Below, piece by piece: positions 2,644 to 34,800 of a stretch of 64,000 bases of DNA (position 1 is the first letter of the stretch; the number at the start of each line of letters is the position of its first letter). Below the pieces are notes generated by a model. It was not told the origin of the DNA and did not search any database. It saw nothing but the letters and a program-made list of their open reading frames with translations. Both the position numbers and the translations under genes were made by a program. The DNA comes from Paraspadella gotoi (lineage: Eukaryota > Animalia > Chaetognatha): positions 1,679,554 through 1,743,553 of the forward strand of contig CM119266.1 of the NCBI GenBank assembly GCA_051294375.1, given 5' to 3'.

Positions 2644-3848
2644 ATGGCGCTCGTGTCTGCCCAATATTCTGACTCTGAGGGAGAACTAAGCGACGGAGGG
2701 CAACGTGATGTCAACGACGATGACTATTTTTAGCGATGCCCAGCCTCTGCTCTCCGCCGTGATCCTTCCATTCTCCCCTTTGCTCATCTCTCCGCCGAAA
2801 ACCAACCCTCGGGGGCAGCAGCGGCCACAACACGCCACCCCCTCCGCCACGTGGGGCGGCGCGCCCGTCGGGATCTCCGGACGCGATTCCGGCCTCGCTT
2901 CTCGGCAGCCGTCAGCCGAGCCCCAAGTCCGGTGGGACGGACTCGCCACTCGTTCGCCTCATGCCAACACAGCGTCTCAATCTCACGGCCTCTTCTGGAC
3001 TAGTCTCTTATCCGGGGAGGAGGAAGAGGAGGAAGATGATCCTGACAATTACGAAGTCTACGATGATTACAAGGAGAAAGAGAACGAGCCTGAGAAAAGA
3101 GGACTTGACGAGGGACTCGTTCCCGACTACAATGGATCTCTCCTCTGCCAATATGAGCGTAATGGTCGTTTGAAGCCGCCCCACCCGCAGAAGGTGATTC
3201 CAATTCCTACGCCGGGACACCTCCGCAATTCCCGCCCGAACCTCAGGGCCGCTGCTCAAAAGCGCTACAGGATAATATCGCCCTGAAGTATGAGGATCTA
3301 GCGAGGAAATGGACTACAACAAAGCTATTCAACGCAAAAAAGAATTCAAAAATCCATCCATTTATGAAAAACTCATCGAGTTGACCGGGATTTACGAATT
3401 CGGCACCAACTATCCGGCTCAAGTATACGACCCCATTTCTGGGGGGATCAGGCTTCCTATGAAGATTTGGCCAAAGCGCAAAAAGTTGAGATGGACAAAC
3501 GCGAAGAGAAGCGAAGGAGGTGCCAGAGCTAAAGTGGAATTCGTTTCAGGCACTGCTAGAAAACCAACTTCATCTTCCACCATTGCTGACACTGATAGCA
3601 AAGAGAAAAAGCGGAAAAGCAAATGGGATCAAGGCGCCGTTGATGAGCGTTGGCTGCGTCGTCGGCGTCGTCGTTGTCCCTAACTGAGTGTCCCGGTCGC
3701 AGTGACGTCCTCGAGTGTTCTTCCCGTGGCGTCCGGTACGAAGACGACCGTTATCTCTGCTGTTGGAGGCCTCTCAAAAAAGACTAAGTCTAAGAATATT
3801 CTCTATTCGTCGCCTGCTCCGACGTGGCGGCGTCAAACGTATCTCTAG
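2644..3848 (+). pseudogene. SAP30BP: Intronless SAP30-binding protein (SAP30BP/HCNGP) sequence with multiple frameshifts (retrocopy or error-containing retrogene)
   Basis: Begins MALVSAQYSDSEGE. Contains the HCNGP motif [23 protein letters not shown]...EFGTNYP, then [17 protein letters not shown] and the C-terminal TTVISAVGGLSKK. Frame broken several times. Confidence 0.8.
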
Positions 3849-4037
3849 TCTCATCTACGAAGAACCCCTTGGCGTCCTCAAGGTCTTCCTCACGAGAACG
3901 TCATCAGAGACGCCGTCACAACAACACAACACTAAAGAAGGACCGTCACGGCCATGGACAGTGCTCTACGCCCTCACGGCTTCGGTGGCTAAGAAATCAC
4001 CAAGAACTTTCCAACCCCAAAGGCCCTTTTTAGGGCC
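3803..4037 (+). pseudogene. H4: Degenerate 3' part of a histone H4 gene with intact stem-loop
   Basis: [26 protein letters not shown]...GFGG* with indels; stem-loop GGCCCTTTTTAGGGCC at 4022-4037. Confidence 0.85.
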
Positions 4038-6089: not shown

Positions 6090-6182
6090 GAGACACTATT
6101 AATTTATGAGTTAGTGACAAACCGTTCAATATAAGCAGTCCGCAGCTTCGGATCAGGTTGTAACACAATGTTAAGGCGGGTT
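6090..6182 (-). mobile_element. Diverged 3' fragment of a family A LTR
   Basis: Reverse complement AACCCGCCTTAACATTGTGTTACAACCTGATCCGAAGCTGCGGACTGCTTATATTGAACGG... aligns to the second half of the LTR. Confidence 0.8.
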
Positions 6183-6446: not shown

Positions 6447-6679
6447 TATGGTGGACTAAAACCCCACCAACCGTTCATCAGCGGCCATTGGTGCCGGAGG
6501 CAAGTCATTCGCCTCCCAACCCAAAGGTCCGGTTCTAGCCCGGTGGTCGTCTTGCAGTTAAGAGGGACGGGGCGCTTAACCCGCCTGTAACATGGTGTTA
6601 CAGCCTGATCCGAAGCTCAGGGACTGCTTAAATTGAACGTTCTGTCACTAACTCATAACAATAATTACTGTCCTCTTCA
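6447..6679 (+). mobile_element. Solo LTR, family A, with intact twister motif (6554-6627)
   Basis: Full-length match to the LTRs at 14245/14658. Flanks CCCT and CCTA form a near-TSD. Confidence 0.9.
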
Positions 6680-6866: not shown

Positions 6867-7310
<444 letters not shown>

Positions 7311-7539
7311 TTATACCTCCTCCTCGGATCCGGAGCAAGAGTAGAAATTTCAAGCCTCGCTTTTATTGGACAACGGCATTTTATTTTGGACCAATCACAG
7401 GCCGCGGTTTCCCTTAAAGCGCATTTTGGTCTTGCCTCTGATCCACTTACAGCATATAAAAGGAACAGCGCTGCTTCGACTTCATTTCGAAAAACTGACA
7501 TTTTGATTAATTTTGATTCTATCGCTCTCGAACGCAAAT

Positions 7540-7911
7540 ATGCCTCCCAAAGTTTCTTCAAAGGGCGCGAAGAAGGCCGGTAAGGCTAAGGCTGCCCGTT
7601 CTGGCGGGGAGAAGAAAAAGAAGAGAAAGCGTAAGGAATCTTACGCTATCTACATTTACAAAGTCTTGAAGCAAGTTCACCCGGACACTGGCGTCTCCTC
7701 CAAAGCCATGAGCATCATGAACTCGTTCGTCAACGACATCTTCGAACGCATTGCGGCCGAAGCCTCCCGCTTGGCCCACTACAACAAGAGGACCACCATC
7801 ACCTCCAGGGAGATCCAGACGGCCGTGAGGCTTCTCCTCCCCGGTGAATTGGCCAAGCACGCTGTATCTGAAGGCACCAAGGCCGTCACTAAATACACCA
7901 GCTCTAAATAA
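7540..7911 (+). CDS. H2B: Histone H2B
   Basis: [14 protein letters not shown]...[10 protein letters not shown]; divergent from H2A; stem-loop at 7938-7953. Confidence 0.98.
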
Positions 7912-8321
7912 ATTCCCTCGTGCTAATCCACCCCAAAAGCCCTTTTCAGGGCTACCATTTTAATTAAAAAAGATTGTCAATGTAGGTGAAGGCCATTAAA
8001 AGCCTAAGACTTAACGAGTTTCCCAATTGCGTATCATTTAGTGGTTTCGGTTCGCGTTCGTCTCTTTTTCACCTAGCAAACTTGTTTTTCTGGTTTGAGA
8101 ATAAATCGCTGTTCTTTCTTGCTTAGCTGTTCGTGTGTTGAAACGCCACGGAACAAAGAAAGATCTCTGCTGGCTTTTGTTTTATTTTTCTTGCAAAAAA
8201 AAAAAGTTTTCTTCCGTGTTGGTCGAGGCGAAATTTAAAAATTCTTTGTTCAGATACGTATTAACGTAATTAAAACATTTTATAATCTTCTGTTGTGATC
8301 TTAAAAGAAAATTCATAAAAA

Positions 8322-10111
8322 ATGAAGTGGAAATTTAGAGAAGCTCATTCTTTGGGTAAGATCTCGTGTGAAGGGTCGATGAAACTAATTACATTACTAT
8401 ACATTTTGACGTATGGATCATATAGAAAATCGTGAATAAAAAAAAGTTCTCAAGCATAACGATGCTCTATTAAAATCGGATTGCTTCCCTCGCCAGTTCC
8501 GGAACCGTTTATAAGCGGTTATATCTGCATATTTGTATTTCACTGTCCAATACGACTAAAAGTTTCCTCTTGGTTTCGATAATTGTCATTTGACCATAAT
8601 GTTTTATTAGCGAGTTGCTTGTGGTTTTGGAGAATTGAGATGTATCGCGGTTCTATTTTTGAATGTCTATTGCTTAAGAATTAAACGAAATTTGTACACT
8701 GTCCTTGTACTTCACTAACTATTCAGACAGCCGCTGCCAAGAATCTGCAAAAATCCGAAGCAAATACCCCGACAGAATTCCTGTAAGCATTAAACTTTAA
8801 AGGCTAGTTCGATAGCCATGCCTACTAAAGCCTACTAAACATTGTACTAATGAACATTAATGTATAAAAATATTTTAATCATTTAAGGAGGGATTTATTA
8901 TAAATTTTACAATTTAAACTGAAAATTAACGTTTTATATATTAAATATAGTTTTTTAAATTTTTAACCCACTTAAAATAAATTATAAATTTTTAAAATTT
9001 CTTTTATTATCAACAATTAAAATTCAAATCTGTCATCAAAATTAAGAAAAGCCGATTTTTTAAGGATACTACTATATTTAATTAAGAAACATAAATTTTT
9101 TTTTATAAGTTAATGTTCACTGGTGGTACGTTGTTCCTACGTAACTTTCACTATATACTCTAATGCCTACGCTATTCACTCAATTATTTGCTTTCGGTTT
9201 GAAGTGATTTAATTTTAAAAAGTCCGCTTTCCCTATCATATGCATTGTATTTGTAAGACTCTCTCCCCATTCTCCTAAACAACAGGTGGTCGTGGAAAGG
9301 GCACCGCGTTCCACTTACCCCGACTGCGACAAGGACAAGTTCCTAACTCCCAGCGACCTGACCGTCGCCCAATTCATGTACATCGTTCGAAAACGAATCT
9401 CACTTTCGCCGGAAAAGGCGATGTTTCTCTTCGTAAACGATGTTCTTCCTGCGACGAGGTCATATTCAATTATGAAATAATATTTTATAACATGTTAAGG
9501 CTAGATTACTGAAATTTAAAATTAATAATAGGAAGATTGATATTCAGTGAGTCCAGTACACGTATAATTCAGATTTACCAATTACAAGCAAGTACTCAAA
9601 ACTAGCTCAACTAGACTAAAGCGAGATTAAAAGCTTGCATGGTTTTGTGAGAGGGATGACGCCTAAACCTACTACTATAGCCAAAGACATTTTAAATTAC
9701 GTTGGCATCTTATAAAATGTCTTTGTCGGCCTCTTGAGGATTTCTTCTCTTTGCCAGTTTTTGGTTAAGAATCTCATGTTGGCAACCAACGACGTTCATT
9801 TCGAGAAAGATTTGACATTCATTTGACATTCATTTGACATTCATTTCGAGAAAGATTTGACAAATTTTTATTTTGATTTCCTCAATATTTCGGCAGCGCA
9901 ACCGTCGGTGCCATCTACGAAGAACATAAGAACGAGGTAAGAAAAACCATAAATAAATATTGAATCTTATTGTATCAGTTTTTGTAATTTTCATATAAAA
10001 ACGAAACAGTATTTGATTAAATATTTAAACCAGAGCTAAACTTATTTATAAATCATTCCCTACTAGGATGGATTCTTGTACGTTGCTTACAGCGAAGACA
10101 ATTTTATTTGA
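8322..10111 (+). CDS. GABARAPL2: ATG8-family protein, GABARAPL2-like, 5 exons (~8322-8355, 8728-8782, 9286-9458, 9897-9936, 10067-10111)
   Basis: Spliced translation [35 protein letters not shown]...[16 protein letters not shown]...[14 protein letters not shown]; GT-AG introns. Confidence 0.9.
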
Positions 10112-10357
10112 AAACACGGTTATCATCGGGGAAGAACAAGCTAATGAAATCTCTTAAATCTGTTAAAATGCTTTGCTTTTTATTTGAATTTAACCTAAAC
10201 ATTCAACAGGGGCGCTAGTTAGTGCAGACCGCGTCACTGCTTAAGATATCTAGGGAAAAAAAAATGATCAGCTTGGGAAACATAAGCATGACATCTTTCG
10301 AACATGATGGTGGCCCTAAAAAGGGCCGTTTTGATTGGAAGGATTAAGATGTACTTG

Positions 10358-10819
<462 letters not shown>

Positions 10820-11168
10820 TCAGCGAGCATATTCTTGGAACAAAGTCACCGTTGAGATTTTCCCTCCTTGTTTTGAAAAGAGGTAAAACTAAAATGGGGA
10901 ACCGGCTTTTTATACGTTTTTGAACAATTATAATAAAAAAATATTTATGTGTAAGGTTCATTATTTCCTGGTAAGACTATAGATGTAATCGCATTTGAAT
11001 AAATAAACCATAAGACAAGGATGCGTCTTTCCTTCTCTTCGCGCGATAATTTTCGGATCAGGAGCACGGATGGAGAAAAATTTTCGACCAATCAGAACGC
11101 AGCAAATTCCTCTCGTCCCTATAAAACAAAACTATTCTCTCTCCAACGACAATTTCGATAAAATCTAA

Positions 11169-11618
<450 letters not shown>

Positions 11619-11929
11619 AGCGTGAATGCAATCTAACCACCCCAACGGCCCTTTTTAGGGCCACATATATATCTAAAAAGATCTGTCATATTTCGTGGCC
11701 TTTCCTCCTAGATCACTAATTGGTTATTTAACGTAATGACTAACGGAATTTTAGGTTAGGCTTAAAGCGATTGTATTAGTTTTAGCCTAGTATTGTATCA
11801 TTAGTAGATGGACAAAATCAAAAAGGTAGCATTTTAGCGGATATCAATAAGCGACGGAGCTATTTATTTTAATAATTAAAATTTCAGATGGTCTGTGAAA
11901 GGAATATTCCTTTTAGATATTATATATTT

Positions 11930-12155
11930 AGGTGTGGGCCCACGGTGCGCAGCGGGTGCGAAAGTAGGGCTCGCCACTTATGCCGTAAGCTAGGGCAACG
12001 GGCGTCGGGACTGCAGACTCTCATTGACCGCCTCCTGTCATAGTTTAAACCGGATTCGTCACATTTAAGCCAGAACCGGGATGCCCAGGGATTGAACCCG
12101 GGACTCGGGGTTGAAATGAGATGATTTAGCCTGCTTAGTCATTGGTAACAGCGAG
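11930..12155 (-). mobile_element. tRNA-derived SINE
   Basis: Minus-strand A-box-like TGACTAAGCAGG and B box GGTTCAATCCC. Flanking direct repeat ATATATTT at 11922-11929 and 12156-12163. Related head at 62125-62230. Confidence 0.7.
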
Positions 12156-12181
12156 ATATATTTTGATATTATTTTAGTGTA

Positions 12182-12279
12182 AAATTTTTATTTTCGCCGA
12201 CCGGTGTTTTGGCGTAAATTATTACCATATTACCCATACCACCCTTAACCCCCAACGCCGGTCGGCAAAAGTAAAATTA
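12182..12279. mobile_element. Small inverted-repeat element (MITE-like)
   Basis: AATTTTTATTTTCGCCGACCGG ... CCGGTCGGCAAAAGTAAAATT; related ends at ~1215 and ~21950. Confidence 0.55.
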
Positions 12280-12499
12280 TGCCCATTTTAGTACCAAGTC
12301 ATTAGTATTAACGTGGGTCAAGAGCCAAAAGTTATTATACTATTTAACACAAAAATATTTCGAAATCTAAAAAATAAAGAGAGAAATAATTAATGTTGCA
12401 ATTTTCATATTATACTACACTTTAATTCAACAATCTTTTAAGACATAATAGTGGCCCTGAAAAGGGCCTTGGGTTGATTGAATAGAGGAACAAAACTTC

Positions 12500-12874
<375 letters not shown>

Positions 12875-13703
12875 TTAAATTTAAATCACAGTATCGAACC
12901 TTACCGGTTAACTGCTCTATAATTCGGCTAATCAGAAGTCGGACGTCATGAACCAATAAGAGAGGAGGATTTTTGCGGACGCGGGATAAGTGCAACGGAT
13001 ATTTGGATGCAGGATTGTAGTTTTCATTGACGTATTGGCAATGCTATTGGCAATAGTATTGCGTATCAGGATTTTTGAGTTATATTTTTACATTAATTTA
13101 ATGTTGTTAATGATATTGTTAAGTATTACGGAGATTCTTTATTGTTTACATCTCACTCCGTAGGGGCAAAAAATAACTGAGGCAAGGCATAATATTTTTC
13201 AGAGACATTAGTTAAAAACTAATAGAAACGATTCTTGATCCGCTTATCGATTATTTCTATATCTCTTTAAGTAACTTGAAACTGAGATAGAAATAGCAGT
13301 TGTGGTGAGTGGTGACAATTTTAAACCTACCGCTTAAAAAATACTGCCATTTGCCAACCCTTAAATATTTTTTTTAATTTTAACTATTATTTTAAAATTA
13401 AAAACGAAAACTATTTATTTGTGCAAATTTTATATTAATCGATTTTAAAATGCTTTAGCGATGATAGCAGGAGGATAGATTTGAAAACCGTTTTTAATTT
13501 TTAAATTCATACTTTTTTTTATATTAGACTTTTTTCCTTTTTCAATAAGCTTCTTAAAAAAATATTGATTAAAATAATATCAATATTATTATCTTCTGAA
13601 AGCCCTTACAAATATATAGGTTGTATCAATTTCATAAAAAGAATGATGTACTTATGATAATGAATATAAAATTTAACCACTGTCACCTCGGCCCCTAACC
13701 CGC

Positions 13704-14013
13704 CACACTTTGAAGCCATAGTAAGGTGGACAGCAGAAAATTTCATACAGCCTCGCTACCCAGCTGTAACCACTACACTTTGAAGCCATAGTAAGGTGGA
13801 CAGCAGAAAATTTCATACAGCCTCGCTACCCAGCTGTAACCACTACACTTTGAAGCCATAATAAGGTGGACAGCAGAAAATTTCATACAGCCTCGCTACC
13901 CAGCTATAACCACTACACTTTGAAGCCATAGTAAGGTGGACAGCAGAAAATTTTATACAGCCTCGCTACCCAGCTGTAACCACTACACTTTGAAACCATA
14001 ATAAGGTGGACAG
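13704..14013. repeat. 70-bp tandem repeat, ~4.4 copies
   Basis: Unit CACTTTGAAGCCATAGTAAGGTGGACAGCAGAAAATTTCATACAGCCTCGCTACCCAGCTGTAACCACTA starts at 13706, 13776, 13846, 13916 and 13986; partial copy at ~15227-15268. Confidence 0.95.
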
Positions 14014-14352
14014 TAGGGTGAAGTGAAAGTTTGGAATTGAAATTTAGCAGTTATATCTTAACTATAGTAGCCCAGTCAGCTTATTTTGTATATAGTACTA
14101 CCCTTATATAATGTCAAAATTTCAAAATGATTTTTTTTAAATTCTGAGAACAGATTCAGATTCCTCGTTAAAAGTTGATAAAAGAAAATATAAATCTTTT
14201 TTAAAAATTATGTCATTAAGTAGGTAAAAATTATAAAAAACTATTATGGTGGATTAAAACCCACCAACCGTTCATCAGCGGCCATTGGTGTCGGAGGCAA
14301 GTCATTCGCTTCCCAACCCAAAGGTCCGGGGTTCTAGCCCGGTGGTCATCTG

Positions 14353-14426
14353 GCAGTTAAGAGGGACGGGGCGCTTAACCCGCCTGTAACATGGTGTTAC
14401 AGCCTGATTCGAAGCTCAGGGACTAC
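14353..14426 (+). ncRNA. Type-P5 twister ribozyme-like motif in the 5' LTR
   Basis: GCAGT..GG-GA-CGGG-GCGCT-TAA-CC-C-GC-[CTGTAAC/GTTACAG]-CCTGA-TTCG-AA-GC-TCAGG-G-ACTAC. Predicted cleavage at 14376/14377. Confidence 0.72.
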
Positions 14427-14765
14427 TTATATTGAACGGTTCTATCACTAACTCATAACAATAATTACTGTCTCTTCATTGGTGAGCCCGACTTCCGAAC
14501 ATAACAACAACAACACTTTCCGGCGACATGCCTGAACCTGGCGATGCAATTTCCGCCCACAACACATCAGGCGACATGCCTCAACTTGGTGACGCACTTT
14601 CCACCAACAACAATTCACTGAAGAGACGCAACAGACATCTTCCTACGAGGGGGGGTGTATGGTGGACTAAAACCCACCAACCGTTCATCAGCGGCCATTG
14701 GTGTCGGAGGCAAGTCATTCGCCTCCCAACCCAAAGGTCCGGGGTTCTAGCCCGGTGGTCGTCTG

Positions 14766-14839
14766 GCAGTTAAGAGGGACGGGGCGCTTAACCCGCCTGT
14801 AACATGGTGTTACAGCCTGATCCGAAGCTCAGGGACTGC
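14766..14839 (+). ncRNA. Type-P5 twister ribozyme-like motif in the 3' LTR
   Basis: P5 GCAGT/ACTGC; P3 CTGTAAC/GTTACAG; P4 CCTGA/TCAGG; L4 TCCG-AA-GC; T1 TCCG:CGGG; T2 GC:GC. Predicted cleavage at 14789/14790. Confidence 0.78.
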
Positions 14840-16856
14840 TTATATTGAACGGTTCTATCACTAACTCATAACAATAATTACTGTCTCTTCACTATGTTTT
14901 TAAACTGGAAATTAAAAATCGATGTTTTAAATATAGTTTATTACATTTTTGACTAACTTAATGAAAGAATTTTTAAAAAAGAATTATACTTTCCTTTTTT
15001 AACTTTTTGCAAGGAATCCAAATCCGATCTTAAAATTTAAAAATTTGCATTTTAAAATTTTAGCCTATTATATACTTATAATAATATATAAATATAGCTC
15101 ACTGGTGCCCGCTAATGTATAAAATTAAAAAATAAATTTATCAAAATATTTTTAATGGTTTTTATGTTCATGTTTTATATGCTAAATTTTAATTTTCTAA
15201 AATTTTATCATTTTCACATCACTCTAGTGGACAGCAGAAAATTTCATACCGCCTCGCTACCCAGCTGTTATCAATGACGCGACGATATATATATATATAT
15301 ATATTCAGTCAGTTAAAAGTTATAATAATTTTCATTTCACTCCCATTTGAAATCCATGTATTTAAACTTTATTTTTTACAAAATATTAAATTTAATCTTT
15401 AATACCTAACCCTAACTTATCCTCTAACCTAATTAACCTAATTAATTCTGAAGTTAAGCTGAAAAGGGGCACTTTTTAAAAATATGGTCAAAAGTTGTTT
15501 TTAAAACATGCCCTTCCAGTAATCTACACAAAATATGAAAGATTCAGTAAAGTGAGACTGGAAATATGTTAGCGAAACTTCTGATGTCTTTTGCGTCGAA
15601 AGTTTATTTTTTTATTTTTAACTCTAAACAAAAAAAATTATACCATACGTTGTTTTCATTTTCTTCGGACGAAATTGTGTTTAGAAATGAAAAAAAAATA
15701 ATTTGGAATTTTAAAAATTTTTAAAGCATACATATTACTATATGAAAATACTATTTGTAATACAGTTATAAGAAAAAATAAGTTTTAATAGGCCTAAATT
15801 TCATTATTTGCATGTACAAATATATGAAAAAAAATGCCAAATCGCTCATTATTTTCATTGCTCCACTCGACTGTTTGCCACAATGAATATCCGCGCATCG
15901 GGTTTTTTCTTTCTTTCTTTGTTTTTTTTCTTTGTTTCTAACTTCACGAGAGCTGACATGTGTTTTCTCCCGTCTAATCCTTTTAAAGCAGTTTCTTTTT
16001 GCCGAAGACCTTCACACAGTTCCCTTATACTTATAGATAAGCATTCTCCGAGAATTCATTTCGTTTGTGTAAGTTGGGTTTGCGTCAAGTCGCTTAAAAT
16101 TTGAATCTCGAATGATGGTTTAACAAGTTCTTCATTATCAAAACATTAAATCTAAATAATATCTCACTAAAATTATTTTCTCTTTCAGTTGTACTACGTT
16201 AATGATGTATGAAAATTTAAAAAAATAGCTGAAATTTAGACTCAGTGTTGCTCTGGCACGAAAGGTAGTTCGAGTTTTAATTGGGAGATAGAAAAAGAAA
16301 AAATGTGGCAGCAGATGTGTTAGTGTCTAGGAATAAATCAAGCTGAAAGTATAGAGTTTCACTGTCTATCCTTTAAAAGTGATCGAATTAAAAAAATCCC
16401 CAAATTTCGGGACCAAAAAAACCTAATTTTAAATAACAAAACTATTTAACATGTTCAGAAATATAAATTTAACGGGAAGCTTACTTAGTCTTTTTGGTGC
16501 GAACGAACAGAGAAGAATAGTGTTAGAGTTTCAGACTATTGCAGCGAAATTTGGATTCTTGTGACTTAATAGGCTACATATATCGATGAATAAATTGTTT
16601 TGCTTTTAGACAATATATAAAAATATATTCTATTTAGGTTCAAGCGCCGATATTTAACAAAAATACTTGACTCAACAAACACAAATGTCATTCAAATTTT
16701 TCTCTCGGCGGATCTTGGCACGGGAGCGCTCTCGTTAAGGTTCGATCCTATAGAAATCTTTTGTTAAAACTCGGAGCGGAGAATAAGTTGATTATTCTTT
16801 CGCCGTTCGTACAATCAACTTCTCTCGCTCTCTTTCTGAGAAATTTAACCTCAATC

Positions 16857-17447
16857 ATGTCTGACGCTGCTTCTGCTCCGGCCAAAAAGGCCTCTAAGCC
16901 AAAGGCCAAGAAGGCTGCCTCTCATCCGCCTTTCACCCAGATGATCGTCAATGCCATCACTGGTCTCGGTGACAAGAAAGGATCTTCCAAGGTGGCGATC
17001 AAGAAGTACATTCTCGCTAACTTTAAAGTCGAGGATACGAAGTCCACCAACACTCATCTCAACATGGCGTTGAAGCGTGGTGTGGACGCCGGCAAGCTGG
17101 TCACCGCTAAAGGCCACACTGGTCACTTCAAGGCCAACAAGGAAGTCGCCCCCAAGAAGCCCGCGGCCAAGAAGGCTTCGCCCAAGAAGAAGCCTGCCGC
17201 CAAGAAGCCCGCCGCGAAGAAGGCTTCGCCCAAGAAAGCCGCCACGAAGAAGACCGTCAAGAAGTCCCCCAAGAAGGTGGCCAAGCCTAAGACCGTTGCC
17301 AAGAAACCGGCGGCCAAGAAGACGCCAAAGAAAGCCGTTTCTGCAAAGAAGCCGGCTGCCAAGAAACCCGCCGCTAAGAAGCCGGCGGCCAAGAAGCCAG
17401 CTGCGAAGAAACCGGCTGCCAAGAAAGCCGCGCCCAAGAAGAAGTAG
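16857..17447 (+). CDS. H1: Histone H1
   Basis: Winged-helix domain ([30 protein letters not shown]) plus KKPAA-rich tail; AAACACA box at ~16677; stem-loop at 17477-17492. Confidence 0.96.
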
Positions 17448-18335
17448 GCCGTTGGCTCCATCGAACTCACTCCAAAGGCCCTTTTCAGGGCCACCATTTC
17501 CTCTAAAAAGATCGTCATCGAAAAATGTAATACACGTGCGAGTAATACCAGTTAGAATCTACTAAGGCCTGGTTTAGTTTAAACGAGATAATGTGACTAA
17601 GCAATTCTCTTGATTCGCAAGATAAATAATTAACTAACTTTCATAAAAGAAAAGTTTGTTTCTATTAAACTAGATTCTTTTCCCACACTACAATTCGAGA
17701 CGTACGTTGTCTTCGCTACACCGCCTCCGCATCTTTGGCAAAACAAGACGGTACCTGAGGCATGCGGTGGCACTGGGTCGGAAGTCTTTGTCTCAACGGG
17801 TGCGAGAGAACTCCGAAAATTAACTAATAATTTGTAAATTTTCTGTGACCGCCACAATTACTATCGAGTATTTTTTGTGGCGAATTTTTCACAAAATAAG
17901 GAAATCAATCAATGTAATATTTGTAATATTGCAATAATTACAGTTAAAAATTTTATACTACAGTATTTGTAAGTACATCATTCTCTTTAGATTTGTAAGG
18001 GCTTTCAGAAAAATTTCTGAAAATATAAAAAAAAATTAAATTTTGAACATTGCAAAACATATAATTTGGACATATAAATAATTAATATACTATTATACTT
18101 AACTTAATGAAATAACCACTGGTTTGCAAATAACAGCGTTATTTTACCGGCGCTTATAAAATTGTCACCATGTAGTAATTTTGTAGTTCTAATTTTAATA
18201 AATTTACGGATTTGTCTACGTTTTAGGACCTAAAGAGAAAATCAAAGTACCAAATAGCTGACTGACGATCTTTTTGAATCATTTGTGGCCCTAAAAAGGG
18301 CCCTTGGGGTGAGTTAATTAATAGTAACTTAAATC

Positions 18336-18728
<393 letters not shown>

Positions 18729-18980
18729 TTATAAACTTTTGGATCGAACCTCATCTGTTGGCTGCTTACTAATTCGACGAATCCGGCGTCAGCAGCCGAG
18801 TGGCGGCATCGGCCAATCAGTGAGAAGAAAGATTTTGAAAATTTTTTGTCTATTTTTTCAGTACATAACACAATATTGGCTTATAAGTTATAAGTTATAA
18901 GTTATAACTAAATTATCCAGAAACTCGTCAAAGACTTTGACAAAGTTAAAGTTAATTAAAAGCATTTAAGTTAAAGTTAA

Positions 18981-19647
<667 letters not shown>

Positions 19648-20589
19648 TAGAATTCGTATATATATACACTTAAGGGAGTGGTCTTTTCATACAATTGTAA
19701 CAATCTTTGAAATATTATACCACTTCATTGATAGGGAAGCCAGGTACTCTGGGAGTGAATAAACAAGACAGTCTTGATTAAAAGCTTGCAGGGATCTGCT
19801 ATCTTAATCCACCAAAGCAAGATAGCTTATTTATTAAATTAATAGATAATCTTTATTGGTTGTACCAATTTCATAGATAAAAGTGAAAGCTTATTTGAGT
19901 ATAATCTCGTTTACAAAGTAGAGTTTTTATGAAATTGGTACAACCAATATAAAAATATTTACTGCAAATATATTATATTTATCCTATATATTTAAATTAG
20001 ATTTATTTCATTTAAACACCGATAAAATCGTTGTTTAAATAAAATACTAAAAACTCTCAACTTTGTAAAAGAAATTCGAAATACAACGAAAAAGAAAGGA
20101 AATTAAATAAGCGTATTATCATAATTTTTAAAAAAAGCACTACACTACAATTAAAGATTTAATTAATTCTTTCTTTATTCCTGCGGTAAGGCAGTATCCT
20201 TTATAGTTAGGAAAATGGAAAATTTAAAAATTAGCTTTCGACTATTCCGCCAAGCGTGGGATCGTCTCCAAAATTGAACTTCTAAACGCATTTCCCTAAT
20301 TTGGGAGTTCTTTAACAAAATCTTTATTAAAAGATCGCAAGGGCAAGATTTCATGTTTATTGGTGGTACCAATATCATTATGCTAGTGGGGAAACTAAGA
20401 GCAAGGTTTTATCCTAAAAAATAATTGATGATGGTACTTGTTTTTTCTTTTCTTTTTTTACTTCAGCTCTATTAAGCATTAGGAGACGTAAAGAAGATAT
20501 TAAACATAAGTCGGCAATGACAGATCTTTTGAAAAACAATGGCAGCCCTAAAAAGGGCTTTTGGGGTGTTTTCAGTTCTTGAAGGAAAT

Positions 20590-20961
20590 CTACTTGGAGC
20601 TGGTGTATTTGGTGACGGCCTTGGTGCCTTCAGACACGGCGTGCTTGGCCAATTCACCGGGAAGCAGAAGCCTCACGGCCGTCTGGATCTCCCTGGAGGT
20701 GATGGTGGTCCTCTTATTGTAGTGGGCCAAGCGGGAAGATTCGGCCGCAATGCGTTCGAAGATGTCGTTGACGAATGAGTTCATGATGCTCATTGCCTTG
20801 GAGGAGACGCCGGTATCAGGATGAACTTGCTTCAATACCTTGTAAATGTAGATAGCATACGACTCCTTTCGCTTTCTCTTCCTCTTCTTGTCACTGGCAG
20901 AGCGAGCAGCCTTGGCTTTTCCAGCCTTCTTCGCGCCCTTGGACGAAACTTTCGGAGGCAT
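20590..20961 (-). CDS. H2B: Histone H2B
   Basis: [14 protein letters not shown]...KYTSSK; stem-loop at 20544-20559. Confidence 0.98.
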
Positions 20962-21244
20962 TTTACGTGAAATCAAAGACGAGATTAAAAGATCTATGTT
21001 TCTCCACACACTCTTGGACTTTTCTTTTTATATGCCCTCAACGGATCAGAGCCGAGGGTAAATTGCGCAAGCTCTGAAATAACGCTCTCTGATTGGTTGA
21101 ATCAAATTTAAACAACCAACAGAATCAGGGCGGATTTTTTTACTCGCGCTTTGGATCCTGCTTGCTGGTATAAAAACCGAACTTGACGCGTTTTAGAAAT
21201 ATTTTTTGACTCATCGTATAGCTCGTAACAATAATTTCATTACA

Positions 21245-21616
21245 ATGTCTGGACGTGGAAAAGGCGGGAAATCCAAAGGGAAGGCGAAGAGCCGTTCCAG
21301 CCGTGCTGGGCTTCAGTTTCCAGTGGGTCGTGTCCACCGATTCCTGCGCAAAGGCAATTATGCTGAACGCGTTGGCGCCGGTGCTCCGGTCTATTTGGCC
21401 GCTGTTCTCGAGTACCTTACAGCTGAGATTTTAGAGTTGGCTGGTAACGCTGCTCGCGACAACAAGAAGACGAGAATCATTCCCCGTCATCTTCAATTGG
21501 CCATTCGTAACGACGAGGAGTTGAACAAACTTCTCTCTGGGGTCACCATAGCTCAAGGTGGTGTCCTGCCCAACATCCAAGCTGTCCTGCTGCCCAAGAA
21601 GACCGAAAAGAAGTAA
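21245..21616 (+). CDS. H2A: Histone H2A
   Basis: [19 protein letters not shown]...KKTEKK; stem-loop at 21643-21658. Confidence 0.98.
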
Positions 21617-23002: not shown

Positions 23003-25083
<2,081 letters not shown>

Positions 25084-26730: not shown

Positions 26731-29538
26731 ATGACTAAAGGAAAATTAATAAAAAAGAAGAGCAAACGGTTATCTTGTCACAAAAAGTATAAGATTGCAC
26801 GAAAAGTGAGAGAACATAACCGGAAACAGAGAAAAGAAGCCAAGAAGACGGGGAACTCCAAATTTCGACAAGCAAAAAAAGATCCTGGGGTTCCAAATTG
26901 TCCCTTCAAGGTGATAGAGATTGACATTCTAGCTCAAATTTCACAGTTTCTTCCCTTGATTCATGAAGTTAGGATAACATCTTTTATTCTTTCAACTTTA
27001 AACTAAACGCACTTGCTCGATGTCGGGATAAACTGTCTTACTTTTAATCTCGATAACTCCTTCCATTTCCCTTTTTTTTTCACCCTGTAACACACTACCC
27101 TGGTAGGAAGAGGTCTTGAAAGAAGCTGAGCGCCTGAAGAAAGAGGGAGAAGCGATGAAGGAAAAGCAAAAAAGAAAAAGACTCGAGGAGTTGATGAAGC
27201 GGCGAAAAATCGGCGCCTCCTCGGAGAAAGACCTCGTCAAGAATGCCGAGAAGCGCGCCAAGGAGTTCGCCGCCCAAATTGTCGCCGACGAGGATGCCGC
27301 CGCCATGGATACCGCCGAGTCTACTCGCGATCCTTCGCGCAATTACATCCGGGTCTTCAATCGCGTCGTCGAGGCGGCCGACGTGATTCTCGAGGTCCTC
27401 GACGCCCGCGATCCGCTACGCAGCCGGTGTCCGCAGGTGGAGGAGGCCGTGATCAGCGCCGGAACCAACAAGAAGCTGGTCCTCCTCCTCAACAAAGTGG
27501 ACCTGGTGCCCAAGGAAATCGCCGCCAAGTGGATAAAGTATCTTCGGAACGAATTTCCCACTCTCGCCTTTAAGTCCTCCACGCAAAATCAAAAGAATAA
27601 GTTAGCGCGGAGCAAGATGGCGGCGGAAAAGGCCCCGGAAGAGCTTCGCCGATCCTCGCACTGCCTCGGGGCCGACGCCCTTGTCAAGCTGCTTGCTAAC
27701 TACGGTCGCTCCCTCGACGGCAAGACAGCCGTCCGCGTCGGCGTTGTCGGGTTTCCCAACGTCGGCAAGAGCTCCGTAATTAACAGCCTGAAGCGGGCAC
27801 AGGCCTGCGAAACGGGATCGGTTCCTGGCGTCACCAAAACCATGCAGGAGGTGCGGCTGGATAAGCACGTGGTCATGATCGACAGTCCTGGGGTCGTCAT
27901 GTCTTCCAGCGTTGATCCCGTGGACAGGGTGCTGCGGAACTGCACGAGGCTCGACCTCGCCGGCGTCGACGCCAGCCAAGTGGTCGACCGCATTTTGGCC
28001 AGGTGACTTTGGGGCTGGGGGATTTAAAAATACTAAAAACGCATAATTTCTAACTCGCTTTGTCGCCGCCAGGTGTTCCCCGTCGCAGATGACGCTCCTT
28101 TACAAGATCCCCCACTACTCAGACGCCGCTGAATTTCTATCGTCGATGGCTCGAAAGACGGGGCGTTTGAAGAAAGGGGGCGTGCCCGACGTGGAGAGTG
28201 CCGCCGCTCGCGTCGTCGATGACTGGAATGGTGGAAAAATCAGGTGATGTTGAGTGGATAAGGGACTGTGGGCTGAAGAGTGCTATCCGCAACTTCTTTA
28301 GCAGCCATGGAATAAATCCTGGGCTTGGAACCAGGCTTGAGGGTTGTCCATGCCCGCAAGGCTGTTTACGGCCATCCTCACTCTTCCCGCAGGGTAGGTA
28401 CCATGTAGTTACCTTGTCGTCATGAGCGGATGGCTTTACTCAATGAGCCACCGGGTCACGAATGAAAGAGTCATGTTTTATAAGCGGTGCGAACTTGGCG
28501 CAATGCCCGACTACAGTCGTATTAAGTGTCAGACAAGTAGAAAGAAATAATGGAAAGGATAAGAGAGGAAAAATTGATATTCTATAACTAAATATTGGCC
28601 TCAACAAAGTGTAAATTGTAATTAGCCATATATTTTCATGGTAATTTCCGAGGTTCTTGATTATTGAGGAAATTTTTTTTCCCTTAAACTCGATTATTTT
28701 TCAAGCCAGTTCAAGTTTGAAGTTTAAAAATATATTAAAAAATCGGCGTTGCCTTGCAGGTACTACACCCATCCGCCGGATGAGCACACCCTTCCCCGCC
28801 ACCTGACGTCGGAGATCGTGACTTCAATGTCGGCCGCCTTCGATCTCGACGCCATCGAGAATCTTCAGACGCTGACGCTGGACGGACTTCGAGGCACCGA
28901 CGCCGCCCGAGACATGCTCGTCGACTCTGCGGGATTCACCGACGGACGGCTCGAAGAGGCGGGCGAGGAGGATGGCGATGACGATGACGACGAAGACGAT
29001 GACAAAAAGTCGGAATCGATGGTGGATGACTTGGCGGCGGAAGCGGCGAAGATGAAGAGGGGAAACTCAGAAGACGTCGTCGTCGTCGTCGAAGGCCCCT
29101 CGCCCGCCGTCTCCAAGAAAACACTTCTTAAGACCAATAAAGGTAACAATTAAAAAAATTGCGATAAAAACTGGATGTTAGAGATGCTTATAAGAAACAT
29201 GGTTGTATTTTTTAGGAAGCTCTTTTATAACATCTTCAATATGATTGACCACATTACCTCTCCCTCGAACAGGCAAAAGCTTCGCCGATCGACTCCAGGC
29301 GAAGACGTCAAAGCGTCGCGTCACATTTGACGAGTCGTCCAAGAAAGCCGCCGTCGACGCGGAGGCCGATCGAGCGAACAAAGCGCTCAAAAAGCAGTTC
29401 AAGAAGTCGAAGAAGGAGCGGAGGAAGAGCGAGAAGGTCGCGTCATCGTTGGCGTCCGATCTCGATCACGCCCTCAAGAATTTGGGCAAACCAACAAGCG
29501 GCGGAGACGGGGACGGTTATGACTTTAGCGTTTTGTGA
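26731..29538 (+). CDS. GNL3: Nucleostemin/GNL3-like circularly permuted GTPase (multi-exon)
   Basis: N-terminal [24 protein letters not shown]...KDPGVPN; G4 NKVD precedes G1 GFPNVGKSS and G3 DSPG; later exons [10 protein letters not shown] and YYTHPP; C-terminal YDF. Confidence 0.92.
28250..28515 (-). mobile_element. Diverged LTR-like element, family C, in a GNL3 intron, with a twister-like motif at 28306-28405
   Basis: Minus strand begins TGTAGTCGGG and has an A-box-like TGGCTCATTGAG. Motif GT-GA-GGAT-GGCCG-TAA-AC-A-GC-[CTTGCGGG/CCCTCAAG]-CCTGG-TTCC-AA-GC-CCAGG. Ends and TSD uncertain. Confidence 0.6.
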
Positions 29539-29744: not shown

Positions 29745-31295
29745 ATGGCGCTACAAACTGACGCCGTCCCGAGTCGTGCATCGCGGCCCAACGCAACCAG
29801 ACGCATGACCTTCAATCAAATCCTCCTCCGGATCAGCGAAGAGCTCAGAGATGAACACCTGGATCAGCTCAAGTTTTTGCTCCGCGACAAAAATCTTCCC
29901 GGAGCCAAACTCGCCGCCGCGAAGAATGGGCTCGATCTCTTCGAACTTTTGCGGAACAAAAAGCTGATTTCAGAATTAAAAATGACCTTTTTAAGAGATC
30001 ACTTGGCCGCCATAAGACTCCGTAGGATCGCGCGAGAGTTGCTCAATGGAGGTTGCGTGATCGATAGCAACGACCCGCTGCGGACCGTCGACCCTTGGAG
30101 GCTGTTGCTGCTCCAGTGTTCGGAGGAAGTAGGCGATGAGAACCTTCGGAAAATTAAATTTCGTATCAATGGATACGAAGGCCTTAACAGCGAACGGATA
30201 GAGAAAGCCAATTCGCTGTTAGACCTTATTATCATGCTTGAAGAGTCCGGCAAAAGGAAACTGGAAATCCGCAATTTTGTATACAATTCCATGAATGTAC
30301 TAAACAAACCATTGGCGGAAAAAGTCTTTTATTTCAATATCGACCAGGAGGCTTCCAATCAGTCCCAGACAGTCCAACAGCGACCACGGAGGAACGCCCA
30401 TCCTCAAGAGAATCTGACGTGCTTTGTACAACAGACCCAACAACAGAATATGGTTGTAAACATGCCCGTCTTCGTTAATTCCGCACCAGTCTCTGCGGAC
30501 CAAAGCATCGTCCCAAGCTACGATCTACAATCAAAACCCGGGATCTGCTTCATCATTAACATTAAAAAGTTCTATAAAGATAATTCTGTGTCTTCCACCG
30601 CCGACAATGCCAGGGAACCTCCTTTGGAGGAGAGAAATGGCTCCGAGTGCGACGAGCGTCGTCTGTGGTCGACATTTAAAAATCTTGGCTTCAAAGTTGA
30701 AGTCCATCAAGATTTGTCCGATGAGGGATTGGATTCTTTCCTTAACAAATGCCTCGAACGTGATTATAGCGATTTCAGCATCTTCGTCTGCGCCGTCATG
30801 ACTCACGGAAAGGAAGACGTCATCCTTTGCGCAAATGGGATACCCAAGCCCATCATAGAAATCACGAAAAACTTCAGCGCCCGTCAATGCCAGTCGTTAA
30901 TAGGCAAACCCAAGATTTTCCTCTTCCAAGCTTGTCAAACCGCGGATAATGAAGAGTATTCGCCGTTGCCGCCCACGGAAGTGGTGCACGCGGACGGGCT
31001 TGACGCCGTTTCACAGTCGACCACCGATGTGGACGTTTTCGTCGGCTACGCGACGGTCCGCGGCCGGCCGGCTTTTCGCACTGTTAACGGATCCTGGTAC
31101 ATCGAGGCCCTTTGCAACTGCATCGACGAGTTCGCCGATCGGTACCACTTCGCCGATATTCACCTTCGGGTGGTCAACGAGGTGTCAGCGAGAATGACCG
31201 GCCGGTTGAATGGTCGCCTCGTGAGGCAAACGCCCAAATGCGAAACTACCCTGAGTAAACATCTTTATTTCAAGGTCAGGGAACGGCGAAGTTAA
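29745..31295 (+). CDS. CASP8: Initiator caspase with two death-effector domains (caspase-8-like), single exon
   Basis: Two DED-like repeats (LLRISEEL...LKFLL; LLLQCSEEV...KIKF), catalytic THG and QACQT, KPKIF, GSWYI. Confidence 0.85.
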   Translation: MALQTDAVPSRASRPNATRRMTFNQILLRISEELRDEHLDQLKFLLRDKNLPGAKLAAAKNGLDLFELLRNKKLISELKMTFLRDHLAAIRLRRIARELLNGGCVIDSNDPLRTVDPWRLLLLQCSEEVGDENLRKIKFRINGYEGLNSERIEKANSLLDLIIMLEESGKRKLEIRNFVYNSMNVLNKPLAEKVFYFNIDQEASNQSQTVQQRPRRNAHPQENLTCFVQQTQQQNMVVNMPVFVNSAPVSADQSIVPSYDLQSKPGICFIINIKKFYKDNSVSSTADNAREPPLEERNGSECDERRLWSTFKNLGFKVEVHQDLSDEGLDSFLNKCLERDYSDFSIFVCAVMTHGKEDVILCANGIPKPIIEITKNFSARQCQSLIGKPKIFLFQACQTADNEEYSPLPPTEVVHADGLDAVSQSTTDVDVFVGYATVRGRPAFRTVNGSWYIEALCNCIDEFADRYHFADIHLRVVNEVSARMTGRLNGRLVRQTPKCETTLSKHLYFKVRERRS

Positions 31296-31875: not shown

Positions 31876-34800
31876 ATGTTGGACTCGAAGTCGAAGACCA
31901 AGCCGCGGACGGGGGATTTGGTGTGGGCCATGATGAAGGGATTCTCCTGGTGGCCAGGAAGAATTGAGGAACCTGACCCCGACGTGGAGCCGCCCGCTTT
32001 GGCCAAACAGAAGCCCCACCATTTCTGCTTCTTCTTCGGCTCGGGAAATTAGTAAGAATTATATAATACTTGGTTAGAGGCCGTTTTTTGTAATTTTAAT
32101 GTTTATTGAGACTAAGAGAAAGACACAGAATGAAGTTATTGTGAAAGGTATGTTGGAATTAAAATTTAAATAACTATTCCTTTTTCCCAGCGCGTGGGTT
32201 GAGGAAGAAAAGATGGCCGAGTACGACGAGAATCGGGAAAAGTTGAAACCGAGTGAAGTGAGCAGCAATTTGCAAGAAGCCATCGATCGGATCGAAGAGG
32301 CGCTCGCGATGAGGGTGAGTCCAAGAGAGTGGGTCATGTTTAAGGTCTTAGATAACCAGCATTTGGTCTTCGAACCTCTACCCAAATATTTATCGAATCT
32401 TTGCGTACCTTTCAATTCTGCAGAAACGACTCAAGGATAACGACGCCGCCCCTTATTCCCCGATGTTCGACGACGACGACGACGATTCTGCCTTATCCTC
32501 GACGCTGCTTCGACCGATCCTCACCCAGCGGCAGAACTCTAACGATTCGGTGTCGGATTCTGACCTTCCGCACGGAGACGATACGCTGCTGAATTCCTAT
32601 TCAAAGCTGCTGCAGGGCGACGCCACCTCCGACGCCGCGTTGGACGGTGTCTCAGCCGAGGAAAATGGCGAGGGCATCGATTCCTCGGTCGATATGCAAC
32701 AGAGGTGAAGTTAGCTTAGATCATTTGGCATTGCTGCATATTTACTAAATATTTTTAATTAGTTAAATCGTTAGTTTTTATATGCCCGCTTGTAGGGACG
32801 CCGAGTCTTTAAACGGCGAAGCGGACTCGCTGAGGCTGTCTCCGCCCCCGTCTTCCAAATCGACGGCGTTGACGACTGAATCCGTTCCGTGTGGCGATGC
32901 TACGGCGTCGTCGGCCAAAACTAAAGCGCCGTCCGAAAAAATAGCCACGCCATCTGTTAATTCTGAGGCTAAGTCGACCACAGCTTTGTTACCTGGTGAA
33001 AAATCGGCGACGCTTTCAAAAGAATCGGCCACTCTCACTAATGATTTGAAAACAACTTCAATAGAATCGGCATCGCCTTCAAAAGAATCGGCATCGCCTT
33101 CAAAAGAATCGGCATCGCCTTCAAAAGAATCTGCATCGCCTTCAAAAGAATCGGTATCGCTTTCAAAAAAGTCAGCATCGCTTTCAAAAGAATCGGCATC
33201 GCCTTCAAAAGAATCGGCGGCGCCTTCAAAGGAATCGTCGGTACATTTGAAGGAATCCGCGGCGCCCTTGAAAGATTCCGCGGCGGCCCTTAAAAGAATC
33301 GTCGAAGCGCAAGTCGCCGTCGGACGATGACGCCAAGTTGGATCACACCGCCATAAACGCCGGTCAGAAAAGTTTGTTTGGTCTTTAATTAGAGAAATTT
33401 AATGAACTTACCTGATAGTTATTATAATATTCGCAACATCCTTCAGACTTCGAGGGAAAAGCGAAGCGCGCGAGAAAAGTTCCCTCAAAATTGGCGGATT
33501 TCGCGATCGGCGTTTCCGCCGAGATGAGGATTCAACCGCCGGTGAGGACATTCAGCCGCAAGTCGAGCGCTGGTTCCGGCGCCGGAGCTGGTCAGGCCGG
33601 AAATTCTGAACACTCAGACGGTTAGTTTTTTTTTGTGGGAATGAAAGCCTAGTAATATTGAACCGATTCCATTTTCGGTTCTGAGTTTTGATCAATTATC
33701 TTATCAATCTTTAGGAACCGACTCTACCTTAAGCACAACCACTCCCTCCTCCGCCGTCAAAAACAGCATTAACAACAACCTCTCGGCCGCTAAAGTCTCT
33801 AGAAATTCCAAGAAACTCGATCCCTCCGTCACAAACAGGTTTGCTTTTTTTTTTCAATCGTGTCGGACTTTGTAAGTCAACTTCCTCGCCAATAGAAGGT
33901 CTATTGTCTCGGGCGACTGATTTGTTAAAGTGGTGCCTATTTTTTTTTTTGGCGTGTGTTTATTTGGATTGTGGGAACGAAAGTCGTACTCAAATCGTGG
34001 GAAGAAACCTTAAACATTAACGTAAGTTTACCATGTTATAACAAGTCGTTGTTAAAATCATCCCCCACCCATTCCAGCACGTCGTCGACGTCCTCGACAA
34101 AGCCTCGACAAAAGGCACCCTCATCTCTCCGCTTTGGCTTCCTCGGTCTCGGCGCCATGGGCTCCGGAATGGCGGCTTCCCTTGTCTCCGCCGGTCACGA
34201 CGTCGTCGTCTGGAACCGAACTGCGTCAAAGTGTCGCGAGGTGGTGAGGGCCGGGGCCAGCAGGGGCGCCTCAGCCGCTGAGGTCGTCCGCGACTGCGAC
34301 GTGACCTTCTCGTGCCTCGCCGATCCCGCGGCGCTGAAGGAGGTCGTCTTTGGCAGCAATGGGGCGTTGCTGGGCATCGCCGACGGAAAAGGTGCGAGGG
34401 GATTAATGGGGGACCGATGAGAACGGATCCGCTTCCCATTCTCGGTGTCCTCTGCCCGTTTTGAAATACTTGGTGACAATTTTACAAGCGCCGGTAAAAA
34501 AACCAGTGGTTATTTCATTGATTTTAAAAATTAGTTGAGTAGAAAATATTAAAATAATTTGTGTTCAAATTTTATATTGATCTGTTAAGATATGCCCTGA
34601 CAATGAGTTGAGAAAGTTGGCTTGCAAAATCGGGTTTCATTTTCCAACTCGGTTTTTAAATTCTTTTTTTTTTTCAATTTTTAACACTTTTTTAAACAAA
34701 TTATTTATTAAAATATAAACAATATTATTATCTTCAGAAAGCCCTTAAAAAAATGAAGAGAATGATATACTTACAAAAGCTTTAACATAAAAATTAAGTT

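Follow-up and report, generated by a model that had tools for sequence, protein, structure and literature searches.

A Gypsy-type miniature LTR retrotransposon of an animal with a candidate twister ribozyme in each long terminal repeat

The window analyzed here is a stretch of 64,000 nucleotides from the chaetognath Paraspadella gotoi (contig CM119266.1, positions 1,679,554 to 1,743,553). At positions 14245-14891 it carries a non-autonomous, Gypsy-type miniature long terminal repeat (LTR) retrotransposon of 647 bp, an assignment that is supported by tests. This element represents a real multi-copy mobile family with fixed TA...CA ends. Each of its LTRs contains a predicted twister fold behind a tRNA-like head, and comparison of divergent copies supports conservation of this fold under apparent selection. 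The element may well work like a retrozyme, in which case an RNA polymerase III (Pol III) transcript would be cut twice by its own ribozymes, circularized as a 413-nt RNA and copied by a Gypsy-type helper; we find this reading about as easy to believe as to doubt. The host is an animal, as indicated by a histone cluster with three Histone3 stem-loops, a caspase with death-effector domains and PP2A-A matches named solely from animals.

The two LTRs (14245-14478 and 14658-14891, both + strand) are 234 bp each, differ at five positions and are flanked by the target-site duplication CTAT (left 14241-14244, right 14892-14895; + strand); the preliminary description of these parts was confirmed. The five mismatches (14254, 14310, 14348, 14409 and 14425) are all C>T or G>A and are private to the 5' LTR when it is compared with the 3' LTR and with the two solo LTRs described below. 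The LTR termini are TA...CA, and loose contig ends from public sequencing runs cluster at them. An LTR starting with TG was ruled out, as three insertions and the run contigs all begin with TA. TA-starting LTRs are also found in some Helenus families of wasps (PMC10886601). The first part of the LTR (U3) contains a 6-bp hairpin at 14247-14266 (+).

The primer-binding site (PBS), TGGTGAGCCCGAC, was found at 14480-14492 (+) after a 1-nt spacer behind the CA of the 5' LTR, again as first described; it is of the tRNA-Trp type and is the only match within the window, where 0.07 would be expected. The non-coding interior (14479-14657, +) spans 179 bp, of which 14519-14614 is a 48-bp tandem duplication, and the longest stop-to-stop frame across the whole element is 95 aa. 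The polypurine tract (PPT) had been placed just before the 3' LTR. The tract is present at 14647-14655 (+), and a 2-nt TG spacer (14656-14657) separates it from the LTR. Together with the single nucleotide ahead of the PBS, this spacer would fit the trimming of 2 nt at each end of the cDNA. Besides the duplication, the stretch 14519-14657 contains a short open frame that ends near the PPT and is possibly a remnant of the 3' end of pol. Positions 14620-14628 are complementary to the final 9 nt at the LTR end.

By test, the element belongs to the TRIMs (terminal-repeat retrotransposons in miniature): it is shorter than 1000 bp, has two LTRs with a PBS and a PPT bounding the interior, has no coding capacity for mobilization, and is found at dispersed sites, also as solo LTRs, with duplicated target sequence. 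Elsewhere in the window, the same family (family A) is represented by two solo LTRs and an LTR fragment. The solo LTR at 6447-6679 (+) shares 96% identity with the 3' LTR and has an intact twister motif; its flanks, CCCT and CCTA, match over 3 bp only. The solo LTR at 1702-1932 (+; 91%) is flanked by ATTT on both sides and its twister is decayed at the GA and in stem P4. Two of the three family A insertions in the window therefore show a 4-bp duplication and one shows a 3-bp match.

Further copies were evident in public runs of the same organism. Contigs joining the LTR start to unrelated flanks numbered 94, 79 and 24 in runs X1, X5 and X9, and those joining the LTR end to unrelated flanks 83, 63 and 30; summed contig depth was not taken as copy number. 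In both X9 and X1, one contig lacks 651 nt (647 + 4) and represents an empty site with a single CTAT. The flank of this site is itself repeated, so the contigs may derive from another copy of the flank; the single CTAT is present all the same. Run X10, from organism B, contains a piece of the element interior. Run X9 had been considered as RNA, but it behaves like DNA (25-kb contigs, AT-rich flanks, the empty site) and was not used for expression.

A twister fold had been proposed for each LTR, and its parts and cut positions agree with the earlier proposal, although the fold is atypical. It is of the P5 type and is located at 14352-14427 (+) in the 5' LTR, with the predicted cut at 14376/14377, and at 14765-14840 (+) in the 3' LTR, with the predicted cut at 14789/14790. 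In the 3' LTR the stems are P5 (14765-71/14834-40), P2 (14776-77/14792-93) and P4 (14816-20/14829-33), with P3 in 14797-815. The core consists of GA (14778-79), T1 (14780-82/14822-24), a linker (14783-88), U^AA (14789-91) and T2 (14795-96/14827-28); G14778 and A14790 presumably have the catalytic roles. Among the changes private to the 5' LTR, one replaces a T1 pair by G-U and another causes a mismatch in P5. Cleavage at both sites would release a monomer of 413 nt (14377-14789, +) that carries the PBS and the PPT.

These motifs were identified with a descriptor of the twister consensus in P5 strand order, which demands pairing in P2, T1 and P4. It gave five matches in the window (both LTRs, the solo LTR at 6447 and two other loci), none in 100 shuffled windows and none in 20000 shuffled LTRs. 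Three motif types, A, B and C, were compared. All three have the core GA, UAA, GC and U-NNN-AA-GC and the pseudoknots T1 and T2 in P5 order, and all 13 compared pairs, most of them demanded by the descriptor, form in each of them, with three different complementary sets in T1. Motif C also has a weak Rfam Twister-P5 match. They also share a CATGG stretch at the P3 loop, a 6-nt linker replacing P1 and a P2 of 2 bp. As MAFFT misregistered the motifs, pairs were counted by the descriptor. An origin of the twister from the 5' end of an RTE element was ruled out by the P5-type strand order.

The LTR fragment of family A at 6090-6182 (-; 87%) begins at LTR position 133, where the cut is predicted, and stops 4 nt before the LTR end. 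It resembles captured minus-strand strong-stop DNA made from a cut RNA. This start, which is ambiguous by up to 3 nt, is a single case with a chance probability of about 2% by our own estimate. A possible 6-bp repeat, ACTTTA, is located on either side of the fragment, 12 nt off on the 3' side.

The most informative comparison is with motif B, which is part of a second LTR family. The solo LTR of family B (1422-1688, +) starts with TCTGGTGG, ends with TTCA and has the duplication TTAT on both sides, and it contains a tRNA-like head and a twister fold (1539-1616, +; predicted cut 1564/1565). Within the ranges searched, no other T..CA interval had a 4-bp duplication, and the right-hand boundary of this solo LTR was equalled in 25 of 20000 shuffles. 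Families A and B share the start T.TGGTGG and the end TTCA and align end to end with a z of 8.7, and related hairpins open both LTRs. Their identity is 54% overall, 65% in the ribozyme and 38% in the 3' part. Judged by these alignments, family B is a homologous, divergent second LTR family. The stems that the descriptor does not demand are informative here: between A and B, P3 shows three two-sided changes and one break in eight pairs, and P5 is paired 7/7 in both with different sequences, which involves two to five two-sided changes depending on the register. A reading of 1470-1690 as a short interspersed element (SINE) was dropped once the LTR ends and the duplication of 1422-1688 had been found. 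A family A solo LTR is located 13 bp downstream of the family B solo LTR.

Motif C (28318-28381, -) follows a degenerate tRNA-like head. A search for LTR ends around it gave nine candidates at chance level, none of them convincing, and no duplication; the element that contains it could be a SINE or a decayed LTR. In the surrounding region (28274-28460, -), CTCTTCA, the heptamer that ends the LTRs of family A, occurs 44 nt past P4.

Sequence variation within family A also pointed to maintenance of the fold. This post hoc test covered the 22 places with variants at >=2% in run X1, 12 of them in the ribozyme; it takes the commonest letter at each place, with weights from summed contig depth, and A14791C is excluded. 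Six of the seven non-CpG variants in the ribozyme keep the fold, where 2.5 would be expected (p 0.004), and with CpG places included 9 of 12 keep it, against an expectation of 5.8 (p 0.02).

Upstream of the twister, a tRNA-like head (14278-14349, +) was identified, with an A-box-like sequence at 14286-14297 and a B box at 14330-14339. Its acceptor-like stem is paired 7/7 in the copy of the 3' LTR (14691-14762), and the stem is 7/7 in both families although the sequences differ. GGTTC is present, the A box matches TRGCY..YGG in part, the B box has one mismatch, and the A-to-B spacing is tRNA-like in A and B; in family B the T-arm is unpaired. A loose A+B pattern also matches 11 other places in the window and is thus non-specific when used alone. 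Neither the element nor the family B LTR has a T4 run, the first one being at 14897. The head is a predicted Pol III promoter.

The PBS had been reported to be identical at 12 of 13 positions to the PBS of tRNA-Trp, and this agrees with the published tRNA-Trp PBS of Gypsy-32_NVi and Helenus-2_SyJa (PMC10886601 Fig S2). It also fits the motif TGGTGA[G/C]CCCG[T/A] printed for the CsRn1 clade, a clade that goes with 4-bp duplications (PMC2582038).

A cycle of the retrozyme type can be outlined from these parts. Pol III would initiate in the 5' LTR, at its tRNA-like head, and read through the element, since the element has no T4 run. Both twisters would cut at U/A, leaving termini with a 5'-OH and a 2',3'-cyclic phosphate, and the double cut would remove the R repeat needed for strand transfer. 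As both LTRs would be cut at the same place, either the monomer would be circularized or only transcripts left uncut at the 5' site could transpose. The loss of R has been used in the same way as an argument for circles in plant retrozymes (PMC4918200). With the strands in P5 order, each half of the fold comes from one end of the monomer. Folding of the linear monomer predicted that the ends remain paired (14379-82 with 14780-83, p 0.7-0.8; 14433-40 with 14680-87, p 0.8-1.0), an arrangement that would suit ligation by RtcB or by the ribozyme itself; RtcB is known to join such ends, as integrases are known to trim cDNA. The folding of the circle gave a z of -2.1, which is too weak to count. A helper reverse transcriptase, probably of the CsRn1 clade, would then prime with tRNA-Trp and copy the circle for more than one round, so that two LTRs would be rebuilt. 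Integrase would trim 2 nt per end (the TG spacer on the left, T and one primer base on the right) and make the 4-bp duplication. A hairpin that competes with the twister (14780-83/14792-95) would shield the circle, much as a hammerhead arm is blocked in plant retrozymes.

Several results weigh against a working twister or against the cycle built on it. The pairing in P2, T1 and P4 is a requirement of the descriptor and hence not independent evidence. The Rfam search proposed in the preliminary description gave no twister match on the LTR or on family B, even at E<=10, nor any hammerhead match on the element; the gathering score of Twister-P5 (RF02684) is 37.6 bits, and motif C reached 18.3 bits (E 0.076). 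P1 is missing and P2 is 2 bp long instead of the 4 bp of the Rfam consensus, which was taken from the Rfam alignment of motif C, and twisters lacking P1 are reported to cleave inefficiently (PMC8501958). The hairpin competes with the twister, the twister-compatible nested fold lies 7.7 kcal/mol above the minimum free energy (pseudoknot energies excluded), and in the whole predicted transcript the pairing probabilities of P3 and P5 are <=0.05. Variants are not depleted in the ribozyme (7/68, compared with 6/51 in the flanks; p 1), G14824A, at 3-13% depending on the run, disrupts a T1 pair, and A14791C (0.5% in X1, 3% in X2) changes a core base. Contig ends did not accumulate at the predicted cut site among the rows shown, beside which there were 521 further rows. 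The head has no Rfam tRNA match and only a partial A box, and ARAGORN found no tRNA genes in the window. Family B is known from one solo LTR, and no autonomous helper and no second PBS were found within the window.

Three other explanations share parts of this evidence. In one, the twister is active in a linear cycle: it defines the RNA's 3' end where a Pol III terminator would otherwise do so, enough transcripts escape cutting in the 5' LTR to retain an R of about 100 nt for ordinary strand transfer, and a circle would not be required. We regard this as rather unlikely. It would account for the missing T4 runs in the element and in LTR B, given that a T run right after the B box is found in many of the published Helenus LTRs (PMC10886601), but the absence of T4 from 647 nt is a weak argument, as about 1-2 would be expected by our own estimate. 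The competing hairpin would slow cleavage, and if transcription begins at the head, an outer stem between U3 and U5 would be possible in the 3' LTR context only, which could make cutting asymmetric. However, since the ribozymes of both LTRs are the same at insertion, transcripts should be lost to 5' cutting, the fragment at 6090-6182 points to a 5'-cut RNA that once existed, and plant elements of like build give circles (PMC4918200). Another possibility, which appears improbable to us, is that the twister cuts but promoter and helper differ: the RNA would be released from Pol II read-through of a host transcript, or circles would persist or replicate as RNA, and the head would be an RNA structure rather than a promoter. 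The poor A box and the one-mismatch B box would be in agreement with this, as would the acceptor-like stem that is intact in A and B despite different sequences, and replication at the RNA level has been proposed for plant retrozymes (PMC4918200). The tRNA-like A-to-B spacing in both families and the unpaired T-arm of B are in conflict with it.

Slightly less probable still is that the fold has little or no activity and arrived as a passenger with a tRNA-headed SINE, and that the element is an ordinary Helenus-type TRIM. The lack of an Rfam match and of P1, the short P2 and the blocked minimum-free-energy structure are all compatible with a passenger, and so are motif C, which lacks recognizable LTR ends, and the absence of overall variant depletion; a SINE insertion was indeed proposed by Kojima as the origin of Helenus LTRs (PMC10886601). 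On the other hand, the fold is preserved by two-sided changes between LTR families that are only 54% identical and share their terminal motifs, family variants avoid breaking it, and another ribozyme class, as read by eye, occupies the same slot in wasp Helenus elements.

By anatomy, the closest known family is that of the Helenus TRIMs (TRIMp3; Kojima 2024, PMC10886601). These are shorter than 1.3 kb and have two LTRs with a tRNA-derived head containing A and B boxes, a PBS, a PPT and, in animals, a 4-bp duplication and a PBS of the Gypsy type. The 4-bp duplication and the Gypsy-shared PBS that mark the animal members are both found here, and the element is probably a Helenus-type TRIM, from which it differs in having a twister as its ribozyme. 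Helenus-2_SyJa and Helenus-2_SyUm from Synergus gall wasps also have a tRNA-Trp PBS after a 1-nt T spacer (PMC10886601). Downstream of the B box, their LTR consensus sequences contain, as read by eye, an apparently complete type III hammerhead (PMC10886601 Data S1), with a 6-bp stem III, GUC, a 7-bp stem I, CUGAUGA, a 4-bp stem II and GAAA; loops I and II read as kissing loops and are complementary over 12 nt. The sequence CTGATGAG had five matches in the supplement of that paper, two of which, in the two Synergus families, were in a hammerhead context. In the part of its main text covered here, a ribozyme is named solely in the title of a reference and none is described in Helenus. Judging from these hammerheads read by eye, the element would not be the only one of this build in animals. 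The interiors of the wasp Helenus-2 elements contain T4 runs, which weakens the argument of Pol III read-through for them. Five twister-loop motifs searched in the same supplement, as far as it was covered, gave three matches, none in a twister context.

The LTR retrozymes of plants (Cervera et al. 2016, PMC4918200) are likewise non-coding LTR elements with a 4-bp duplication, a PBS, a PPT and a self-cleaving motif in each LTR; there too a double cut removes R, and the ribozyme is blocked in the predicted fold. They differ in their type III hammerhead, their tRNA-Met PBS and their experimentally observed circles of 600-1000 nt, whereas the present element combines a predicted twister, a tRNA-Trp PBS, an animal host, a tRNA-like head and a predicted monomer of 413 nt. 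The label of a candidate LTR retrozyme given to it earlier is appropriate with regard to the 4-bp duplication, PBS, PPT and non-coding interior, but its strict definition requires a hammerhead. The motif resembles Twister-P5 (RF02684) in strand order, GA, UAA, GC, the U-NNN-AA-GC loop, T1/T2, P4 and P5, and differs in the 6-nt linker in place of P1, the 2-bp P2 and the long P3. By strict definition, the element is neither a retrozyme nor a member of RF02684.

Other systems are more distant. The twister T-variants of Perere-3, an RTE element of Schistosoma mansoni, represent twisters with weak or no P1 in an animal retrotransposon, but Perere-3 is an autonomous non-LTR element with a single ribozyme of P1-type order that defines its 5' end, and no circle is involved (PMC8501958). 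Metazoan non-LTR retrozymes and the SINE-like hammerhead repeats of Schistosoma are ribozyme-cut, non-autonomous retroelements of animals, and the latter also combine a Pol III promoter with a ribozyme; these systems differ from the present element in having type I hammerheads, tandem arrays and links to Penelope-like helpers, and no LTR, PBS or PPT (PMC7761336, PMC6765202). Insect elements with type III hammerheads have been mentioned as work in preparation (PMC7761336). The engineered Tornado system combines a Pol III promoter with twisters and produces circular RNA in animal cells (bioRxiv 10.1101/2023.07.11.548538), which indicates that the chemistry works there. It is synthetic and not mobile. 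The circles of this system are closed by RtcB.

In the literature searched, which took in neither Repbase and subscription journals nor supplements on bioRxiv and the sequence lists that accompany Roth et al. 2014, no twister in an LTR element and no animal LTR retrozyme was found, in line with the earlier remark that no description of a twister-bearing LTR retrozyme in animals was known. LTR retrozymes are always reported with hammerheads and animal retrozymes are described as non-LTR (PMC7761336, bioRxiv 10.64898/2026.07.22.740005); the portion covered here of the latter preprint (July 2026) places LTR retrozymes mainly in plants and nowhere mentions the twister. The related claim that known LTR retrozymes are plant elements with hammerheads agrees with this literature, but the LTRs of wasp Helenus elements show, by eye, a hammerhead in the same slot. 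Pattern scans for relatives gave 12 metagenome loci and one viral locus, none of the 13 in a twister context by eye; none of the metagenome loci had BLAST similarity to the elements, and all 13 were taken as chance. What appears to be new here is the tRNA-like head before a twister, the second LTR family that keeps the fold, the retention of the fold in six of seven non-CpG family variants, and the hammerheads read by eye in wasp Helenus elements, which had gone unremarked.

These comparisons lead to a broader proposal, which we put forward tentatively and hold with more doubt than confidence: that animals harbour LTR retrozymes as an undescribed class, primed by tRNA-Trp, dependent on Gypsy elements, driven by Pol III and yielding viroid-sized circles, with a ribozyme slot whose occupant is interchangeable and a new minimal twister lacking P1. 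The slot would hold a twister in at least two divergent LTR families here and a type III hammerhead in gall wasps. If the element cuts and circularizes, the twister would have a second role in eukaryotes beyond RTE 5' ends. The LTR-retrozyme cycle would then extend to animals and require self-cleavage rather than one ribozyme class, and Pol III TRIMs would be linked to retrozymes. Animal cells would have an added source of viroid-sized circles, a natural counterpart of the Tornado cassette, and a natural twister variant without P1 and with a 2-bp P2 would be escaping the current Rfam models. With their apparent hammerheads, the wasp Helenus elements provide another, independent system in which to address this question.

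The element is located inside a 173-bp inverted repeat (14072-14244 and 14933-15105; 74%) that is multi-copy in the run contigs and resembles a miniature inverted-repeat transposable element (MITE); a related stretch is found at 47588-47718. A 70-bp tandem repeat of about five copies occupies 13630-14049, and a detached 47-bp copy of it lies across the element at 15227-15273. A palindrome of about 950 bp (34461-35415; 73%), related to 13310-13616 and 18056-18195, is probably another MITE-like family. The dispersed histone cluster (6867-21616) contains H2A, H2B, H3, H4 and H1 genes in both orientations with 3' stem-loops; the H3 at 19041-19562 and the H4-like sequence at 3803-3976 look degenerate. 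The PP2A-A gene (23003-25083, -) is intron-poor, and the caspase (29745-31295, +) is encoded in a single frame with two death-effector domains.

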